Source of the DNA: an uncultured Lachnobacterium sp.
GTDB taxonomy: Bacteria > Bacillota > Clostridia > Lachnospirales > Lachnospiraceae
Direction of reading: 5' to 3'
Assembly: GCA_900550545.1 (NCBI GenBank)
Contig: URSS01000004.1
Coordinates: 52,644 to 116,643 of the forward strand
DNA length: 64,000 bases
The translations under genes and the position numbers were made by a program. Positions 3,904 to 13,157 of this stretch are shown in pieces. The notes beneath the pieces were generated by a model, which was not told where the DNA came from, searched no databases, and saw only the letters and a program-made list of their open reading frames with translations. Positions within the stretch are counted from its first letter, which is position 1, and the number at the start of each line of letters is the position of its first letter.

Positions 3904-6217
3904 TTTCAGCCACCTCACTTTCATTCAGTCCAAGCTCACTTGCAGATAACTGGGATTTTGCAATTTCCTGATATACGCTGCAATTCTTTAACAGTTCCTC
4001 GTGTGTTCCTTTTCCGACAATGCGACCGTCATCCAGTACCAGGATCTGTTCTGCATGAAGAATCGTACTGATTCGCTGCGCTACGATAATCACCGTGCTG
4101 TCCTTTACATTTTCTGCAAGTGCCTTGCGGAGTGCCGCATCTGTTTTCAAATCCAGTGCGGAAAAACTGTCGTCGAAAATAAATATCTTCGGATCTTTTG
4201 CAATGGCTCTGGCAATTGCAAGTCGCTGCTTCTGTCCACCGGAAACATTGCTTCCGCCCTGCGCAATCGATGAATCATATTTATCATCTTTTGCCTCGAT
4301 AAACTCAGTTGCCTGTGCGATTTCTGCTGCTTTTTTAATCTGCTCATCGCTTGCATCGTCTTTACCAAAGCGTAAGTTCGATGCGATCGTTCCGGAAAAC
4401 AATACACCCTTCTGTGGTACAAAACCAATCTCCTCACGCAGATCTGCCATCGTAATATTGCGGATGTCTTTGCCATCCAGTGTAATCTGTCCACCCGTCA
4501 CATCATAGAGACGCGGAATCAGGTTGACCAGCGTGGATTTACCGCAACCGGTACTTCCAATGATTGCCGTCGTCTTTCCAGGTTCTGCCACGAAATCAAT
4601 ATCATGTAATACATCTTCCTCTGCCCCCGGATATCTGAAGTTTACATGTTCGAAACGAACAACTCCATCATGTACCGTCAGTTCTTCCGGAGCTTTTGGA
4701 TCCTGAATGGAAGACTCTGTATGGATAACTTCATCGATACGCTCTGCTGCAACAGCTGCACGCGGAAGCATGATCGACATCATTGTCAGCATCAAAAATG
4801 ACATAACAATCATCATTGCATAAGTGATAAATGCAGTCATTGCACCGACCTGCATCGTCCCTGCATCAATCTTGTGCGCACCTACCCATACAATTCCTAC
4901 GGTAAGTACATTCATGATCATCATCATACCAGGCATCATAAATGTCATGACACGGTTTGTAAAAAGCATAGTCTTTGTCAACTCTTTATTCGCACCGTCA
5001 AAACGTTCTTCTTCTTTTTTCTCACGGCCAAATGCACGAATAACGGAAAGTCCGGTAAGAATCTCACGCGAAACCAGGTTGATATTGTCGACCAGTTTCT
5101 GCATCAGTTTGAATTTTGGCATAGTCACAGACATCAGTACCATGACATAACCAAGTATCACAAGAATTGCCAGAACAATGATCCAGCCCATTCCGGCTCC
5201 GGTCTGCATAACTTTGATCACACCACCGATACCAAGGATCGGTGCATAGGCAACCATACGAAGAAGCAGCACAGATACCATCTGGATCTGCTGAATATCG
5301 TTCGTGCTTCGTGTGATTAAGGATGCTGTAGAAAAGCGGTCCATCTCTGCATTGGAAAATCCAACGACCCGTTTGAACACACCATCGCGCAGATTCATAC
5401 CGATTCCTGCACCGATACGGGATGCAAAGAATCCAACGAGAACCGTAACCAGTCCCATCAGAAGTGCCATGCCGACCATTTTCAGTCCTGCACTGAGCAG
5501 ATAGGATTTCTGAATCTTATCCACATTCACACCTGCGTCTTTGTCCGCTGCTACCGCATAGGCAATGCCCATAGATTTCACAAGAGAACTTCCCATCGTA
5601 TCAATGGTATCCTCCATCGTGTCACGCATGGAAAGAATCTGGTCTTTGTCCATCGCACCGCTTGCCAGCATATTGGCAAATATCGGTCTTACGTCCACAC
5701 AGTCGACTTTGACTTTGTTTCCGTCATCATCCTCTTTCTCCTGCTTGAAACTTTTCAGGTCCACATGCATCATTGCACCGATATCTTCCACACTCATGTC
5801 AGCAAAAGCCGATACATCTTTTCCCATCTGCTTTGCGATTGTCTCCTTAAAAGTGTCCACTTCCATCGCACGCATCTGGTAGTTCATAATGAGCGGAATC
5901 GTAAGTTCCTCATCAATATCATTCAGTTCCTTATTGGATAAATCTTTTAACTCATACAGATCATCTTTCTTTTCATAGATGTCTTTCCATGTATTCGTTT
6001 CCTTATCCGTCATAATAAACTGTGCTGTATCAAATTCATCTGCAGTCATCTTTTCCGGCACAACATGCTCCACACCATTGTTCTGGATTCCCACATCGAT
6101 GATATCCGACGTATATACCGGAAGTGACAGGTCACACCATGCCTGGACGAACAGCAGCGCAATGATAATTATGACTGCTTTCCAGTAGGGAAGCATATTT
6201 TTAAAAATCCTACTCAT
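3893..6217 (-). CDS. ABC transporter ATP-binding/permease with ~230-aa extracytoplasmic insertion after TM1
   Basis: NBD motifs GSTGCGKST, LSGGQKQRLAIARAI, IFIFDDSFSALD. Start taken at MSRIFKNM (ATG 6217); the upstream EKSRT-repeat extension is the alternate frame of marR. Stop overlaps the next ABC start by 11 nt. Confidence 0.8.
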   Translation of the reverse strand: MSRIFKNMLPYWKAVIIIIALLFVQAWCDLSLPVYTSDIIDVGIQNNGVEHVVPEKMTADEFDTAQFIMTDKETNTWKDIYEKKDDLYELKDLSNKELNDIDEELTIPLIMNYQMRAMEVDTFKETIAKQMGKDVSAFADMSVEDIGAMMHVDLKSFKQEKEDDDGNKVKVDCVDVRPIFANMLASGAMDKDQILSMRDTMEDTIDTMGSSLVKSMGIAYAVAADKDAGVNVDKIQKSYLLSAGLKMVGMALLMGLVTVLVGFFASRIGAGIGMNLRDGVFKRVVGFSNAEMDRFSTASLITRSTNDIQQIQMVSVLLLRMVAYAPILGIGGVIKVMQTGAGMGWIIVLAILVILGYVMVLMSVTMPKFKLMQKLVDNINLVSREILTGLSVIRAFGREKKEEERFDGANKELTKTMLFTNRVMTFMMPGMMMIMNVLTVGIVWVGAHKIDAGTMQVGAMTAFITYAMMIVMSFLMLTMMSIMLPRAAVAAERIDEVIHTESSIQDPKAPEELTVHDGVVRFEHVNFRYPGAEEDVLHDIDFVAEPGKTTAIIGSTGCGKSTLVNLIPRLYDVTGGQITLDGKDIRNITMADLREEIGFVPQKGVLFSGTIASNLRFGKDDASDEQIKKAAEIAQATEFIEAKDDKYDSSIAQGGSNVSGGQKQRLAIARAIAKDPKIFIFDDSFSALDLKTDAALRKALAENVKDSTVIIVAQRISTILHAEQILVLDDGRIVGKGTHEELLKNCSVYQEIAKSQLSASELGLNESEVAENEQ

Positions 6218-7079: not shown

Positions 7080-10000
7080 TTACTTTACTTTTACCTTCAT
7101 TGTTACGGTCTTTTTCTTACCACTCTTTAAGGTAACGGTTGCTTTTACAACCGCAGTTCCCTTTTTCTTTGCAGTAATCTTTCCGTTCTTTGCTACTTTT
7201 ACAACAGATTTCTTTGTCGTTGTATAAGTAACGCTCTTTACGTTGTCCATGTCAAGCTTGCTGCTTAACTGGATTTTTGTTGATTTTCCTTTCTTTACTG
7301 AAACAGATGTTTTCTTTACTTCAACAGTTTTTAAAACAGCCTTCTCGACTTTCTCTACCTCTTTTGCTGTAACAAGCTGATACTCACATCCCTTTGGAAG
7401 ACTTACAGAAATTGTACCGTTTTCATCTACCTTATATGACTTTGCATTGACAAGTTTCTTCTCGCCCGTTTTCTTGTCTACGGCAAGAACCTTAAGTGTA
7501 TTTTCAGCTGTAAGGTCCTTTGCATCAACGGTAACTGTGTACTGTGTATTTCCTTTTGCATCCGTAACCTCGGTTGTGATGACAACGCTGTCTGTTCCTG
7601 CTGCCTCAACAATCTTTGCTGCAACATCTGTGGAAATTTCCGGTTTTGTACTTTTAACCGTTGCACCTGCATCTGTTACATTTCCGTTACTGTCCTTCGT
7701 GATTGTAACCGTTGCTTCTACCTTTTCTCCAGAAGGTGTGGCAGCTGTTACATTCTTGATTTCTGTTGTATCCTTGTCCGTTGGTGTCACTACGGTTGTA
7801 TTGCTGGAAGAACCGGAATCCGATCCATTATTATCCTTATTATCCCCAGAAGCTCCTTCCTGATGCAAATACAATACATCCACAGATCCCCAACCTGCTG
7901 CTTTATTTTCAACAGCAATACGGAATTTTACGCTAGTCTCTTTGTCGAGTGTAAATGTTACCTTTGGTGTTTTCCATTCGTTCCATCCGGTTACTTCTGT
8001 CGCATCTCCGCTGGATAAAACGCTGTCATTCTCTACATTTAACACCTGCATAATCACACTTGCATCTTTTCCTTCTGCATATGCTTCAAATGTATAGCTA
8101 CCCTTTGCTAGAGTAATTGCTTCATTGTAAGTAACAGAACCGGTTGCCTCTGCTGCACTATACCAGCTCATGCTGTGTTTTCCACTCTTTGGATTTTCTG
8201 TAGATGGAATATTCTTAAACATTGTTCCATCAATGGTAAATACAGAACCGTCATCAAACTCTACCGCTGCCTCATTTGTAATCAGATTGGCCTGCTTTAC
8301 CTTTAAAGTCAGGGTTACCTCTGCACTCTTCTTTCCTTTATATGTACCTCTGGTAATCTCTTTGCTGAATGTAACCGTTCCTGCGACCTGATAAATACCT
8401 GCCTTTGTTGTATCAATTTTCTTTACATCTGTTTCATTCCATGTAATCTCTTCTGCTTTTGTCTCATCGGAATACATAACATCCAAAGTCTTTGGAAGCT
8501 CAAATGTACTATTTGCAAGAACTTCCTGTGTCAGATCAGCCCCCATTCCCTCGACGCTGACCTCATTGGATACTGCACCTGTCTTTACATAGTTCCATAC
8601 ATGAAGAGAAGGACTTGCAGTTCCATCCGGATAAAACATTGCTTCGTTGTCTACGGCAGAACCGCCAAACCATACGCCTGCATCTTTTGCATCAAACTCA
8701 CTTGCATAGCTGGATGCCCAGCCGCTTCCATATTTTTCCCATTTTTCCTTGTTTGCTGCTACCTGCTTGTCATATGCTTCTCCGGTCAGCCCTGTGGTGT
8801 CTCCTACCGTCAGCCATGCCGGTTCCCAGTAGTAAACGCCAAGACCACCGGCATTGTTTACGGTGTTGATCAGGTTTCTGATTGCCGTAGCCTGTCCCTG
8901 CTCGGTAAACGGCTCCGTTGCATTGTCTGCGGTATCATTGTTTCCGACACGAACAGTATTGCTGTGACCATCGCTGTCCTCTAAGGTATAAGCGTAACTG
9001 GTCTCTGCTACCATAACATCTTTTCCATAAGTATTTTTTACTGTTTCCAGCTGTGTCTTTAAATTATCCAAAGTTCCATGCCAATATGGATAATAGCTGG
9101 TTGCAAGAATATCATAGTCTACTTTATTCTCATCCAGACGTTTTGCCCATCTTGTCATGTTTGCTTTTTCCGGGTTGGTCAGATGAATAACCACTTTGAC
9201 TTCATTGTTGTATGCCTTCACACCTTTTGATCCAGCTTCAAAAAGAGTACACATATTTGCGACATCGGTTTCTCCAATAAATCCGTTTGTTGTCTCATTT
9301 CCTACCTGTACCATGTCAACGACATCTTTTGTCGGATCAATCGTATTTAAAGAATCCTCAAGAAAAGCGGTAAGCGCTTCTGCCTTCTGCTCTACGGTGT
9401 AACCCTTCCACGCCTTTGGCACATACTGTTTTCCAGGATCGGTCCACAGATCGGAGCAGTGAAAATCAACAAGCATCTTGATTTCGGCCTTCCGGCAGGC
9501 ATCTGCAAACTGTTTTGCTTTTTCCACATCATTGTTTCCACCACCATAGCCATTTCCATTCGTATCGTACGGATTGTTCCATACGCGGATACGAATATGG
9601 TTGATTCCCTGATCTGCAAGGAATTTGCAGATATCATCAAGTGTTTCCAGTTTGTTTCCTTCATAATCCCGATAAACAACACCACTTTCCAGCTCGGAAA
9701 TCATAGAAGAAATATCCATACCCATAATAAAATCGGAAGATAATTCCTTGTCTGTTTTCTTTACGTTTACAGTTGCATCGGTTACGGTGGATGCTGCCTG
9801 CTTTACCTGAATTTTGATGGTAAGATTGTCAATGATCTTCTTCCAGTTATCATCCTGCAGATTGATCTGAATCTCATTGTCTCCGGCCTTCTGTGGCTGC
9901 ATCTTCATGGTAAGCACGCGACCGCCATCTGAGCCTTCGGATATATAATCTATAAATTCACTCTGACTTTCTGTAGTATTATTCCACCAGTAAATGTGAT

Positions 10001-10658
10001 ATCCGGCTTTTGTCAGGTCTGTAATTTCCTGTCCGTCCTTCTGTAAGGAAACGGTAAATGTAACGGTATCACCAACAGTTACTTCTGTCTGATCGGCGGT
10101 AAGCTTTAATGTATATCCATCTTTTGTCACTTCAGAGCTATTCGTTTCTCCCTGGTCCTGACCTTTAATAGTAAGTCCTGCTTCTGAGAGATTTTCATAT
10201 ACTTTTCCATCCTTGATGGCATAAGCATTTTTTGCTCCACTTACAAATGCTGCATACTGCTGTGTGTTATTCCACTGGTTGTCATACTCCGCCTTTTTGT
10301 TGTTGGAATCGTTCTGATAGATGGTAAATCCATCATTTGCTGCAGCATCCTTGATCTGGAACGTCGCACTGTACCAGTTCGTATTTCCTTCCACTGCTGT
10401 CATCTTTGTCTGCTTATTTTCCCATCCAAACGTAGAATTCAGATCGTTTCCCTCCGCAAAGGTAAGCCCGGCCCAGTTCCATATATCCACATACAGTGGA
10501 TCTTTGCTCTCATTGTAGTAATACAGCGTAAAGCTGTCATTTTCTGCCGCCTGTACACTCTCCTTTCTGGCATTCCACACACTAAACTGTGTCAGCACCA
10601 TCGTAAATACAAGCACTATGCTAAGTACTCTTTTTTTCCATGTCCTTTTCTTTTCCAT
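7080..10658 (-). CDS. Secreted multidomain glycoside hydrolase family 53 endo-beta-1,4-galactanase (1192 aa) with N-terminal carbohydrate-binding-like domains and a C-terminal Big_2 Ig-like domain
   Basis: Signal peptide MEKKRTWKKRVLSIVLVFTMVL. GH53-like block MGMDISSMISELESGVVYRDYEGNKLETLDDICKFLADQGINHIRIRVWNNPYD...YYPYWHGT...ETSYAY. C-terminal lysine-rich Big_2-like repeat. RBS GGGAGGA. Confidence 0.75.
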   Translation of the reverse strand: MEKKRTWKKRVLSIVLVFTMVLTQFSVWNARKESVQAAENDSFTLYYYNESKDPLYVDIWNWAGLTFAEGNDLNSTFGWENKQTKMTAVEGNTNWYSATFQIKDAAANDGFTIYQNDSNNKKAEYDNQWNNTQQYAAFVSGAKNAYAIKDGKVYENLSEAGLTIKGQDQGETNSSEVTKDGYTLKLTADQTEVTVGDTVTFTVSLQKDGQEITDLTKAGYHIYWWNNTTESQSEFIDYISEGSDGGRVLTMKMQPQKAGDNEIQINLQDDNWKKIIDNLTIKIQVKQAASTVTDATVNVKKTDKELSSDFIMGMDISSMISELESGVVYRDYEGNKLETLDDICKFLADQGINHIRIRVWNNPYDTNGNGYGGGNNDVEKAKQFADACRKAEIKMLVDFHCSDLWTDPGKQYVPKAWKGYTVEQKAEALTAFLEDSLNTIDPTKDVVDMVQVGNETTNGFIGETDVANMCTLFEAGSKGVKAYNNEVKVVIHLTNPEKANMTRWAKRLDENKVDYDILATSYYPYWHGTLDNLKTQLETVKNTYGKDVMVAETSYAYTLEDSDGHSNTVRVGNNDTADNATEPFTEQGQATAIRNLINTVNNAGGLGVYYWEPAWLTVGDTTGLTGEAYDKQVAANKEKWEKYGSGWASSYASEFDAKDAGVWFGGSAVDNEAMFYPDGTASPSLHVWNYVKTGAVSNEVSVEGMGADLTQEVLANSTFELPKTLDVMYSDETKAEEITWNETDVKKIDTTKAGIYQVAGTVTFSKEITRGTYKGKKSAEVTLTLKVKQANLITNEAAVEFDDGSVFTIDGTMFKNIPSTENPKSGKHSMSWYSAAEATGSVTYNEAITLAKGSYTFEAYAEGKDASVIMQVLNVENDSVLSSGDATEVTGWNEWKTPKVTFTLDKETSVKFRIAVENKAAGWGSVDVLYLHQEGASGDNKDNNGSDSGSSSNTTVVTPTDKDTTEIKNVTAATPSGEKVEATVTITKDSNGNVTDAGATVKSTKPEISTDVAAKIVEAAGTDSVVITTEVTDAKGNTQYTVTVDAKDLTAENTLKVLAVDKKTGEKKLVNAKSYKVDENGTISVSLPKGCEYQLVTAKEVEKVEKAVLKTVEVKKTSVSVKKGKSTKIQLSSKLDMDNVKSVTYTTTKKSVVKVAKNGKITAKKKGTAVVKATVTLKSGKKKTVTMKVKVK

Positions 10659-10680
10659 AGAATCCTCCCTCTCTGTGTTC

Positions 10681-10697
10681 TGACAAATGTTTTGTCA
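10681..10697. promoter_or_regulatory. Perfect palindrome TGACAAA-tgt-TTTGTCA in the galactanase 5' UTR (candidate operator or RNA hairpin)
   Basis: 7-bp inverted repeat with 3-bp spacer, about 23 nt upstream of the ATG. Confidence 0.3.
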
Positions 10698-11463
10698 AAA
10701 CAATGCTGGCAATTTCTCCCTTTGATTTTATCTCTTTATCCAGCTTTGTTTTGCGCAACCGTTTGCGTTTTTTGATGTACATAGTGTACCATATTGATTT
10801 TCAGAGATTCAATTCGCACTATTTCTAATTATTTTTCAGAATTTTATGAAAAATGAACAGACATATTTTTAGACAAAAAACAATTGTGCATAAAAAAGAA
10901 AAGTGCGCAACCAATCTGTGTTTGCGCATTTTTACTACTAATTATTCAATTTTACCAATGATTTTTCGTTAGATACATGAAACTGCTTTCTTTTGTGTCG
11001 TTTTCACGCATTTCTTAAGCTGCTTTCTGTATACAAATTTACGCCCCCAAAAGCAAACCTCCGTACAATATGTTACCACTTCATCAACTGCACTCTCAAA
11101 CTTCATCGGTATACAGATAAAACTCATGGAATTGTGAGTTCTGTTCATAATTCCTCGCATTCCTCGTGATTTGTTGCTGATGTCAGGCATGACATCAAAT
11201 ATGAAATATTTGAGTTTTGCGGACATGGAATTACGTAGTTGTTCTCATCATCTGTCAACCACTGTACTATCTTTTAATCATAAAAATTTATTCATATATC
11301 CTCTGCCGCCCCTAACACCTCATCATTTTCACTTTTGTGGACATATACAATTTTTTCTTAAATAATATCCTTACTTTTTCCTTATATTGGACATATATAT
11401 TGAACGTCTAAAATTAAATCCAAAAAAATATGTGTTTAAAGAACATTTTTTGCAATATATTCT

Positions 11464-11660
11464 ACATATGTCCAATCTTTTTATATTTTGTGGACATTAC
11501 ACTTCTATTTTTTGCATATGTCCATTTTTTTATATTTTATGGACATTACACTTCTTTTTTTTTACATATGTCCATTTTTTATATTTTGTGGACATTACAC
11601 TTTTTTTTTTGCATATCTCCATTCGCTTCATTTTTTCGGACATTATGTTTCTATTTTTAG
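11464..11660. repeat. Tandem array of ~50-bp AT-rich units (3 near-identical, degenerate flanking copies), each with the palindrome ATGTCCA-N16-TGGACAT
   Basis: Units beginning 11464, 11516 and 11566 (acatatgtccattttttatattttgtggacattacacttctatttttt(t)gc); degenerate copy at 11613-11660; a related ttggacatat upstream near 11385. Confidence 0.9.
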
Positions 11661-11664
11661 TTCC

Positions 11665-11703
11665 CACATAAAATGAGTCCCCGGCATTTCTGCCAGGGAC
11701 TCA
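11665..11703 (-). terminator. Terminator of the GGDEF gene
   Basis: GAGTCCCTGG...CCGGGGACTC hairpin (11675-11702) followed on the minus strand by a T-rich tract. Confidence 0.5.
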
Positions 11704-11804
11704 AGCTATAGAGACCAGTATAACTCATATCTGAAAGCCTTTTACTGTCACTGTATAAATTTTTTGCATTAAATCCTGTAACATCGACATCGATTGATAC
11801 TCGA

Positions 11805-13157
11805 TCAGCGAACCCGTCGGTCAATTCCTGATTGTCTATAATAAGCTTCTTTGTCTTTGTACATCCACCTCTCTGCTTCTGTCATCAATTCATCAAGGCT
11901 GGCTGACGCGTCCGGTTTCCAGACATAACCGATAGCCATTGTCACATTTGCCTCTGCCATATAAGACCGCAAGTCACTTATCTTTTCTTTGAGCATTTTT
12001 TTTGTCATTTCCGGACACAGAACAAGAAGCTCATCTCCTCCGATACGGAAAAGCCCATTCTTCTGATTCTCAAACGCCTGCTCCAGACAATCCGCAGCAT
12101 TCATAATAAACTTATCTCCTGCGATATGTCCCTGACTGTCATTCACACGTTTCAGTCCTGTAATATCACAAAATACAACACCTATGCTCCTACGTCTGTC
12201 CACTTGTGTCGCGTAGTTTTCCAATGCGAAACGATTTCCAAGTTTCGTCAACTGGTCATGGAAACTGATTTCCCGTAATTTGCGCACAAGATTTCTTTGT
12301 TTCATTGATGATACGAAAAAATATCCTGTCATCTGTAACATACTCTGCGTGTATTCAAAGGAAATATTTTCTGCAATATTATCCAGACCAAAAAAAGCAA
12401 TCACTTTGCCATTGTCATATAACGGAACCACCACCAGCGAATGAATGCTTTGTTTCTCCAATACTTCATAAAGGATCGGATCTTTTTCCCTGATATCCTC
12501 CAGTTGATGAATGACCACACACCGGTTATCCTGAAACTTTTTGTACCAATGCGCGCACACTTCCGGTGGAAGATTCTGAAGTTCTTCTTTCTCCGGGACA
12601 ACTCCATCCGCCACCCACTCATAGGTATTATTATCATATCCTCTTTCATCCTTTTCAAAGATGTAGGTACGATCGCCATGTAAAGTTTTTCCCAGATATT
12701 CCAACATAACTTCAATGGACTGGTCCGGTGTCGGCGCAAGCAACGCGATACGAAGTCCCTCATTAATGATTGTTTCCAGATTCTGAAAATTCTCGATCAC
12801 ATTTCCCTGCCGGACTTCCTCTCCCACATCCATAGCAATTTCTATACGATAATCTTTACCTGTTTTCTCATCATGTAGCAGCGTATCTTTAAGCAACAGA
12901 TATTTTTTCAGAATAGGATTATAATAACGCCATTCCTGAAAATGCTCCGGTTGCAGTATTTTGTTATTGCACATTTTACATGGCATGGATGAATTCTGTA
13001 GTATCTGATAACATTTCTTTCCTTTGATCTGTTCTAACGAATGATATCCATAAGTTTCCATTGTCTTACGATTCATATAAATCAGCTCATTGGTTTTTAC
13101 ATCAGTAACATACACATATTCATCGAGATTTTCAAAAAATTCCCATACCTTTTTCAT
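11805..13157 (-). CDS. Diguanylate cyclase (GGDEF domain) with N-terminal PAS and GAF-like sensor domains
   Basis: C-terminal GGDEF fold: RSIGVVFCDITGLKRVNDSQGHIAGDKFI...LFRIGGDELLVLC (A-site reads GGDEL). Confidence 0.8.
   Translation of the reverse strand: MKKVWEFFENLDEYVYVTDVKTNELIYMNRKTMETYGYHSLEQIKGKKCYQILQNSSMPCKMCNNKILQPEHFQEWRYYNPILKKYLLLKDTLLHDEKTGKDYRIEIAMDVGEEVRQGNVIENFQNLETIINEGLRIALLAPTPDQSIEVMLEYLGKTLHGDRTYIFEKDERGYDNNTYEWVADGVVPEKEELQNLPPEVCAHWYKKFQDNRCVVIHQLEDIREKDPILYEVLEKQSIHSLVVVPLYDNGKVIAFFGLDNIAENISFEYTQSMLQMTGYFFVSSMKQRNLVRKLREISFHDQLTKLGNRFALENYATQVDRRRSIGVVFCDITGLKRVNDSQGHIAGDKFIMNAADCLEQAFENQKNGLFRIGGDELLVLCPEMTKKMLKEKISDLRSYMAEANVTMAIGYVWKPDASASLDELMTEAERWMYKDKEAYYRQSGIDRRVR

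Follow-up and report, generated by a model that had tools for sequence, protein, structure and literature searches.

The DNA analysed here (henceforth the window) is a stretch of 64,000 nucleotides from an uncultured Lachnobacterium sp. of the family Lachnospiraceae (GenBank assembly GCA_900550545.1, contig URSS01000004.1, positions 52,644 to 116,643 of the forward strand). Within it, a gene encoding a diguanylate cyclase with GAF and GGDEF domains and a gene encoding a GH53 endo-galactanase with Big_4 and Big_2 domains, both read from the minus strand, are separated by a gap of ~1.1 kb. An earlier reading of the same letters, to which we refer as the original prediction, had described this gap as free of genes, and we found this to be so from the stop codon of the GGDEF gene to the start codon of the galactanase gene (10659-11804). 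The order in the direction of transcription is GGDEF gene, intrinsic terminator, a tandem array of palindromes, ~0.66 kb of relic DNA and, finally, the galactanase gene. The array, here called element E, likewise reads on the minus strand and lies ~0.66-1.0 kb upstream of the galactanase start codon. It is the subject of this paper; its units (u0 to u6) and the features around it are located in Table 1.

Table 1. Positions of element E, its units and neighbouring features in the window.
Feature	Position	Strand	Basis or remark
Element E, about seven phased ~50-bp units, ~340 bp	11318..11657	-	Block common to the second genomic locus
u0, degenerate palindrome ATGTCCG-N15-TGGAGAT (minus strand)	11615..11643	-	
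u1, exact ATGTCCA-N14-TGGACAT	11568..11595	-	Pattern match
u2, exact ATGTCCA-N15-TGGACAT	11518..11546	-	Pattern match
u3, exact ATGTCCA-N16-TGGACAT, canonical 30-bp geometry	11468..11497	-	Pattern match
u4, degenerate ATGTTCT-N17-TGGATTT (minus strand)	11416..11446	-	Sequence reading and alignment with paralogue
u5, ATGTCCA-N16-AGGATAT (minus strand)	11365..11394	-	Partner arm is GGACAT in L025 and L027
u6, left half-site ATGTCCA (minus strand)	11338..11344	-	E ends just downstream
Intrinsic terminator of the GGDEF gene	11674..11703	-	13-bp stem, 8 GC pairs, T-rich tail; directly upstream of E
GAF/GGDEF diguanylate cyclase gene, upstream neighbour	11805..13157	-	Pfam PF00990 3.9e-23, PF01590 1.9e-07
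GH53 endo-galactanase gene with Big_4 and Big_2 domains, downstream neighbour	7080..10658	-	Pfam PF07745 1.8e-102
Relic of the upstream module of a PDDEXK_2 (Rpn-like) gene	11110..11238	-	Local alignment with L032 1245-1364, score 66 vs shuffles 20 +/- 2.7
Relic of PDDEXK_2 coding sequence	11059..11184	-	tblastn E = 4.9e-4, residues ~163-203 of intact homologue P0013

The original prediction held that units of ~50 bp, each with a palindrome, are repeated here in tandem, and this was confirmed by repeat detection, by exact pattern matching and by shuffling. Tandem Repeats Finder (TRF) reported an array with a 49-bp period at 11465-11658 with 4.0 copies, 83% matches and a score of 242; its three best copies are 88% matched. 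The pattern ATGTCCA-N14-18-TGGACAT has exactly three matches in the 64 kb, namely u1 to u3, and none in any of 100 dinucleotide shuffles of the window; allowing up to three mismatches added one further good palindrome in the 64 kb, u5, which lies within the same element. GGACAT half-sites are found at 11220, 11338, 11388, 11491, 11540, 11589 and 11637, at offsets that are multiples of ~50 bp. A spacer of 16 nt had been claimed for all three exact palindromes; this is correct for u3 but not for u2 (15 nt) or u1 (14 nt). The extent of the array had also been underestimated: the repeats originally described are real, but they form part of a homology block of seven phased units, the limits of which were set by a blastn alignment of the second genomic locus (L027; see below) with the window (76.7% identity over 344 bp) and by an nhmmer profile match (11657-11325).

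Outside the exact palindromes, u0 varies between strains, its right arm being the canonical TGGACAT in L008 and L023 and its left arm ATGCCCG in L002 and L007. The degenerate form of u4 is itself conserved at the paralogous locus, and its blocks AAAATGTTCT and TTTTTGGATT are invariant in alignment A1. The right arm of u6, which is lost in the window, reads GGGACAT at the second locus. Three plus-strand open reading frames (ORFs; 11387-11671, 11430-11660 and 11488-11676) span the array. They had been dismissed as artefacts of the repeats, and rightly so, as the lengths of the A/T runs shift their frames between strains. Neither these ORFs nor an 85-aa ORF on the minus strand matched a significant Pfam or NCBIfam family (best Pfam E ~0.03-0.08), and on the strength of this result and of the frameshifts between strains we rejected the possibility that the array is coding.

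In UniRef, the adjacent dihydroorotate dehydrogenase bears the name Agathobacter sp. Variation between strains was assessed on 19 loci that encode the identical GGDEF protein or a member of its cluster, together with three loci from a metagenome pattern scan. The gap between the GGDEF and galactanase genes falls into length classes of 1145-1147, ~907, 657 and 487 bp. The array has four units (195 nt) in the window and in three contigs (L001, L004 and L006), three units (147-148 nt) in 17 contigs, and is absent, with intact flanks, from two of the 22 other conspecific contigs (L003 and L005); the original prediction had put forward such an absence from close relatives as the mark of a recent local duplication of no function. 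Its layout across strains is a head (u0), two or three core units and a constant tail (u4-u6). The A-runs of the linkers vary by 1-2 nt between otherwise identical arrays, homopolymer differences that were read from metagenome assemblies and may include assembly error. Differences between strains in unit number and in T-tract length had both been anticipated, and both were found (zero, three or four units; A/T runs that differ by 1-2 nt).

The array-free form keeps one hybrid unit, ATGTCCGAAAAAATGAA joined to ATTCCATGAG, as is expected of recombination or slippage between the first and last units. Its crossover interval, TGAA, contains the palindrome centre and is also the last block of identity, so that site-specific deletion is not separable from homology-driven deletion. 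In L005, a further ~170 bp, flanked by two TGCGCAAAAC repeats close to the promoter of the galactanase gene, is deleted, which probably removes the promoter region; the whole spacer is therefore deletion-prone. The polymorphism of zero, three or four units provides a ready strain marker. Moreover, among strains with an identical flanking GGDEF protein, the length of the spacer that precedes the galactanase gene can differ by as much as 660 bp, a difference that matters when promoters are compared across metagenome-assembled genomes (MAGs).

Genome and metagenome collections were scanned with strict patterns, and the copy number and taxonomic spread given here are lower bounds. A scan of 185,579 species genomes with TAATGTCCA-N13-17-TGGACATATG returned eight matches, of which five are isolated chance matches and three are arrays. 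Two of the arrays belong to UMGS1467 ('Lachnobacterium sp.'), one at the orthologous locus (L014) and the other at a different locus (L016), and the third to an Acetatifactor MAG (L012). A metagenome scan with the junction between the last unit and the tail returned five contigs, which represent only these two Agathobacter-type kinds of locus. Both kinds, locus 1 (that of the window) and locus 2, are present in UMGS1467 and also in the assembly OLSQ01 (L023 and L027, respectively); the paralogous arrays are 77% identical. At locus 2 the order is LacI-family gene, terminator, array and patatin-like gene.

The two loci have their units in the same order, including the degenerate fifth unit (alignment A1), and their homology stops at both ends of the array. 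The array was therefore copied as a block that had already differentiated. A copied block of array plus promoter was considered and rejected, as a 13-nt match past the right end of the element was within the range of shuffles. In relatives with a patatin 80% or 75% identical, the synteny of the LacI-family and patatin genes is kept with spacers of 274 or 241 bp, and these array-free spacers contain no half-sites, compared with 12 in the 633-bp spacer of L027. As syntenic relatives lack half-sites, the element is a lineage-specific gain at locus 2. The element profile found no further copies in the 2.0 Mb of sequence gathered for this analysis, and the 64-kb window holds one copy. The unit is therefore not a generic repeat with many copies, a possibility raised in the original prediction: two loci were found, and the palindromes are conserved at them. 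A GGDEF-domain gene lies near both copies, directly upstream at locus 1 (Table 1) and at L027 3137-5002 at locus 2, where it is the next long ORF past the patatin gene and is fused to a periplasmic-binding-protein-like sensor. Such genes are numerous, and this proximity may be a coincidence.

In the Acetatifactor MAG, palindrome units recur every 51-52 bp between two convergent genes. Three complete palindromes, in which a left arm ATGTCCA or ATATCCA is separated by N16 from a right arm TGGACAT, TGGACAG or CGGACAT, are accompanied by a fourth left arm without a partner. The loops and linkers are unrelated to the Agathobacter ones and to one another, and the sequence profile of the element missed this array; hence only the arms and their geometry are common to both genera. 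The convergent spacer lies between a sugar-phosphate isomerase gene and a pectinesterase gene (L251 2338-3161; L253-L255 2338-2950; L259 2338-2478). Where the flanking gene is 98% identical, a spacer of this type holds an 824-bp inverted-repeat insert and no array; at 90% identity it holds a different, 35-bp tandem repeat (five copies) and a 48-bp one (three copies), again with no array; and at 88% identity it is empty and 141 bp long. These spacers past terminators are hypervariable, and the array of palindromes is just one of the sequences that may occupy them.

The arms of the palindromes, and the distance between them, are conserved better than the sequence around them. Between the paralogous loci, arms are 93% identical compared with 73-75% for other columns (P = 0.0009 and P = 0.0024, both by Fisher's exact test), with arm columns defined on the window sequence alone. 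When the units of the Acetatifactor array are compared with one another, arms are 86% identical and loops and linkers 41% (P = 5.6e-7). N16 is found in 19 of the 26 distinct units, the period is 48-52 bp, and L016 carries seven units at exact 50-bp phasing. Among the eight ATATCCA left arms, seven face an unchanged TGGACAT-type partner (one TGGACAG, one GGGACAT), and the single compensated pair is ATATCCA/TGGATAT in L027. Covariation of an RNA hairpin was rejected for these reasons, namely that arm sequence is conserved and that variants are mostly uncompensated; because the arms are conserved rather than covarying, recognition by a protein appears a better explanation than RNA pairing. On sequence grounds, two inverted 7-mers conserved at a fixed distance would be the signature of a dimeric DNA-binding protein. 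Intrinsic curvature from phased A-tracts was also rejected, as there is no clear 10-11-bp periodicity, only periods of 49 and ~24 bp.

E is thus a non-coding accessory element, portable and variable between strains, with palindromes whose arms and geometry are under constraint. We tentatively favour a reading, possible though far from assured, in which it provides an array of binding sites for a predicted dimeric protein and works in the same way as arrays of iterons, the sopC centromere or the accessory sites of recombinases, all of which act via multi-dimer nucleoprotein complexes. Each ~50-bp unit of E would present one 30-bp site, ATGTCCA-N16-TGGACAT, with a 28-bp core, TGTCCA-N16-TGGACA; each palindrome would dock a dimer of a sequence-specific DNA-binding protein, and the evenly spaced sites would assemble a multi-dimer nucleoprotein complex. 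The array is not tied to a particular gene and occupies 'safe' spacers just past terminators; in all three contexts (locus 1, locus 2 and Acetatifactor) the array directly follows a terminator. At least two loci have received it as a block, by copying or insertion, and recombination or slippage among its units removes it or changes its size. The complex may be a site that acts in cis for a mobile or maintenance function, whether present or past, and not the operator of a promoter. We infer the binding of protein to the palindromes from their sequence. Should the arrays truly be docking platforms for a protein, they would offer a handle for finding a new DNA-binding protein, and may reveal a new way in which blocks of non-coding DNA spread in abundant Lachnospiraceae of the human gut.

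This reading needs to be held cautiously, as a number of observations weigh against it. No cognate binding protein has been pinpointed, and no regulator, recombinase, replication or partition gene adjoins any copy; by Pfam annotation, neither replication or partition genes in general nor sopAB/parAB or rep genes are adjacent to either locus. The element is known from no more than two loci per genome and three taxa, and some strains do without it. Of the three exact units in the window, two depart from N16 (N14 and N15), which a strict dimer site should not tolerate. The Acetatifactor array was found by searching for the motif itself, and the same spacers host other, unrelated repeats, so that such places gather junk DNA. 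Inspection of the ends of both copies revealed no terminal inverted repeats or target duplications, the empty sites of relatives being too diverged to align. Going further, it is quite unlikely, if conceivable, that the arrays are the cis part of an undescribed Lachnospiraceae accessory system, a platform like a centromere, res site or iteron array, transferable as a block and bound in trans by a dimeric protein, encoded elsewhere, that moves or maintains the array. Such a system would account both for the recurrence of one set of arms, one spacing and one ~50-bp period in genera that share no other sequence here, and for the gain and loss of arrays among strains.

The main rival of the docking array is a functionless minisatellite, in which replication slippage would have multiplied an AT-rich unit that is prone to form hairpins. 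The spacer past the terminator, next to a PDDEXK_2 gene in decay (described below), would tolerate this, and the second locus would be a segmental copy; we consider such a minisatellite unlikely, but worth serious attention. Unit number and homopolymer length do vary, the array has been wholly lost in L003 and L005, deletions and relics of genes make a patchwork of the 1.1 kb around it, other tandem or inverted repeats occupy the equivalent Acetatifactor spacer in other strains, and the N14 and N15 units of the window speak of relaxed geometry. However, arms and spacing are kept between paralogues that differ at ~25% of other positions, the Acetatifactor units are only 41% identical outside the arms, and the same arms, spacing and period recur in another genus without other similarity; in addition, the degenerate u4 is kept as such at both loci, which indicates that the array is old and not freshly expanded. 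As neutral minisatellites the arrays would be ordinary, another variable intergenic repeat beside a decaying gene. An operator or enhancer specific to one gene, at which a transcription factor would cooperatively control a downstream promoter (at locus 1 that of the galactanase gene or of the former PDDEXK_2 gene, at locus 2 that of the patatin gene), seems improbable. The original prediction had proposed an operator or iteron array, or a platform for cooperative binding of a transcription factor. The palindromes do behave as constrained sites, which fits a platform for protein binding, but an operator dedicated to the galactanase promoter is unlikely; as for iterons in the strict sense, no replication or partition gene adjoins the array, and collections of plasmids and phages gave no match. 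At loci 1 and 2 the array is upstream of, and co-oriented with, the downstream gene, and inverted half-sites 16 bp apart are used by some AraC-family dimers, such as RhaS, which we count in favour of an operator. The linker also sets TGGACA 17 bp before TGTAAT in every unit, a weak sigma-70-like pair; however, the A that is key at position 2 of a -10 hexamer is missing from TGTAAT, and a promoter scan gave no excess of promoter-like sites. Furthermore, the galactanase start codon is 0.66-1.0 kb away, on the far side of a pseudogene relic; the array is missing from strains whose flanking genes are identical and from relatives with the same LacI-patatin pair; the 64-kb window has no other such site; and the Acetatifactor array, lying between convergent genes, has no promoter to serve.

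Two further explanations appear more remote. One, which we regard as very improbable, is a cluster of DnaA boxes of the datA or DBC type, in which left arms of the form AT(G/A)TCCACA would be near-consensus boxes titrating the initiator. The DnaA consensus is TTATCCACA, and its actinobacterial form is TTGTCCACA. ATATCCACA, with three copies in L026 (locus 2), is one mismatch from the former. The window has three copies of ATGTCCACA, which differs from the latter at one position and from the former at two. Clusters of DnaA boxes outside the origin exist in intergenic regions of B. subtilis (PMC3245932), and viral contigs have dense TGTCCA(C) clusters beside three unrelated replicase types, but these viral clusters were selected by the search pattern itself. 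The part that is best conserved is the right arm, TGGACATATG, which has 3-4 mismatches when read as a box (ATGTCCATT or ATGTCCAAT), whereas the Acetatifactor arms, ATGTCCAAA, are without the CACA core, and a strict N16 palindrome is not a feature of DnaA binding. The other explanation, to which we give hardly any credence, is that the units are transcribed and function at the RNA level, be it as an array of type III antitoxin repeats (ToxI/CptI-like) or as a small RNA. Tandem repeats of 36-50 nt in a Lachnospiraceae genome do look like type III antitoxin arrays (PMC3401426), and the element folds better than shuffled sequence (z of -6.45 on the minus strand and -3.54 on the plus strand), but low folding energy is expected of any inverted-repeat array, and the predicted pairs link arms of different units. 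No toxin ORF follows any copy; what lies downstream is the PDDEXK_2 relic in one case, the patatin gene in another and, in Acetatifactor, the convergent gene for a pectinesterase, the 85-aa ORF has no Pfam match at E < 0.05, and the patatin gene is syntenic in relatives without the array. The terminator precedes the array, units are unequal in length (48-50 nt) and degenerate in the tail, and the mostly uncompensated arm variants noted above count against a role as RNA as well. The best Rfam matches in 10400-12100 (E-value mode) were far below the gathering score, and none was in the array.

Arrays of this kind are already known, as composite intergenic repeats with a variable tandem module or as tandem arrays of binding sites; to our knowledge, no family with this sequence has been described. 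A literature search for such repeats in Lachnospiraceae surfaced only work on type III toxin-antitoxin (TA) systems (PMC3401426). Pneumococcal BOX elements number more than 100 copies and consist of ~45-50-bp tandem modules between constant ends, with a length that varies between strains (PMC3049150). Like BOX, BIME and NIME elements, E is non-coding and AT-rich, with a variable number of ~45-50-bp modules between constant ends. Like BOX in particular, it shows length differences between strains that scale with the tandem part, a preference for spacers downstream of genes, and stem-loop potential with unclear regulatory effects. Unlike BOX, E has only two known loci per genome, no terminal inverted repeats or target duplications that we could see, and no sequence similarity to BOX; each of its units is a spaced palindrome of which the arms, and not the whole unit, are conserved. 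Variable modules between constant ends, as in BOX-type elements and miniature inverted-repeat transposable elements, were thus found, but many dispersed copies were not, in whole genomes scanned with a strict pattern and in a profile search of 2.0 Mb.

Among arrays of binding sites, sopC of the F plasmid comprises 12 direct 43-bp repeats, each with a 16-bp inverted-repeat SopB site (PMC3177203). E resembles sopC and plasmid iterons in its tandem direct repeats of 40-50 bp with one short inverted repeat each, and in sopC the inverted repeat docks a protein dimer, many dimers assembling on each array. In contrast to sopC, E is chromosomal, and its half-sites are 16 bp apart rather than adjoining. 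An origin from a plasmid or phage was rejected, as blastn searches of 72,556 plasmids and of 50,697 phages came up empty; the strict unit pattern had two chance matches in IMG/VR, both inside coding sequence. E is also similar to the res sites of resolvases, in that dimer sites are built from inverted TGTC half-sites and several lie within a few hundred bp. The crossover site I of res is 28 bp long, which is suggestive, as TGTCCA-N16-TGGACA has the same span. The half-sites of Tn3/gamma-delta res begin with TGTC, and Tn3 site III reads TGTCTGATA...TAAGGTACA (doi 10.1101/2021.12.07.471667). However, res has three sites with different spacings whereas spacing here is uniform, and only four bases of the half-site agree. 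With a uniform N16 spacing and no recombinase gene in the window, a resolvase site was rejected, and a text search of the literature for a resolvase-type consensus found nothing. The DnaA-box clusters of B. subtilis are likewise intergenic and consist of a short motif ending in TCCACA that is singly dispensable (PMC3245932); they differ from E in that the motif here is arranged as an N16 palindrome, the best-conserved arm of which is a poor DnaA box.

Type III antitoxin arrays are common in relatives of Eubacterium rectale (PMC3401426), and ToxI/CptI arrays have in common with E short tandem repeats in Lachnospiraceae genomes and a nearby terminator hairpin. E differs in having no toxin gene, a terminator on the wrong side, unequal and degenerate units, and conservation of the palindrome arms only. 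A type III TA array (toxI, cptI or tenpI) was rejected because no ToxN, CptN or TenpN ORF lies directly downstream, and further because the only terminator (11703-11674, minus strand) precedes the repeats on the coding strand. A CRISPR array was rejected as well: the linkers of ~20 nt between palindromes are alike and too short, and there are no cas genes among the 30 Pfam-annotated genes of the window (150-41288), which are housekeeping and carbohydrate genes only. The units are not an array of intrinsic terminators either, having 7-bp stems and loops of 14-16 nt; the terminator scan found only that of the GGDEF gene on the minus strand.

The viral contigs mentioned above comprise 39 loci from IMG/VR (GC content 0.44-0.71) with dense intergenic clusters of TGTCCA(C)/(G)TGGACA, 8-13 per 400 bp; examples are L068 7160-7480, L210 1470-1660, L223 3980-4270 and L211 5640-5860. 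The adjoining replicases are of the Prim-Pol/DUF927/Cch-HTH, VapE-like primase-helicase and Toprim+AAA_25 types. These clusters look like replication origins, possibly with DnaA-box-like iterons. A link between them and E was rejected, since they were chosen by a loose search pattern and have nothing else in common with the element.

On the upstream side of E, the terminator and ~35 nt before it are kept at the orthologous locus of UMGS1467 (homology at L025 254-354). The gene that ends at this conserved terminator differs, being that of the GGDEF protein in the window and that of a Big_2-domain surface protein in UMGS1467 (window 11735-11769 and 11674-11703; L025 ~6080-6180), and with the terminator conserved and the gene before it different, there is a rearrangement breakpoint right at the stop codon. 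On the downstream side, what is left of a PDDEXK_2 gene in the window amounts to ~40 codons and part of the upstream module. The relic of this module begins with an extra half-site, ATGTCCG (11220-11226), and is missing from the 907-bp strain form. The orthologous spacer of UMGS1467 contains a frameshifted, nearly full-length PDDEXK_2 copy (L025 ~4880-5850; L014 3250-3960) that aligns with residues 12-288 of P0013 (tblastn with L025, E = 2.5e-76), and PF12784 is present in some PDDEXK_2 homologues. What separates the array from the galactanase promoter is the remains of a PDDEXK_2 (Rpn-like 'nuclease/transposase') gene. An obligatory link between array and PDDEXK_2 gene was rejected, as the intact homologues P0013, P0084, P0059, P0001 and P0016 have no upstream array and locus 2 has no such gene; since intact PDDEXK_2 genes elsewhere lack the array, we regard the neighbourhood as circumstantial.

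On an Agathobacter-type contig (L032 540-1140 and 1220-2355), the ~280-bp upstream module of PDDEXK_2 is duplicated, with one copy preceding a 3' gene fragment and the other the intact gene P0059. As both copies precede a gene or a fragment of one, module and gene duplicate together. The module starts with TTGACAG-N16-CTACGTTATTCT, which is followed by the half-site-like ATATCCACAAA. Inside the relic in the window, the run at 11044-11048 (C5 on the plus strand, a G-run on the minus strand) is G5, G6, G7 or G8 across strains, and is replaced by GGGGGTTATTTTCG in one third of the contigs; differences in this run could be real slippage or assembly noise. Closer to the galactanase gene, two palindromes that look like LacI-type sites lie upstream of it, at 10753-10768 (GCGCAACCGTTTGCG) and at 10899-10933 (TGCGCAAC..GTTTGCGCA). 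The same region contains ATTTTTCAGAATTTT at 10831-10845, which resembles the CodY box, AATTTTCWGAAAATT, at 12 of 15 positions.

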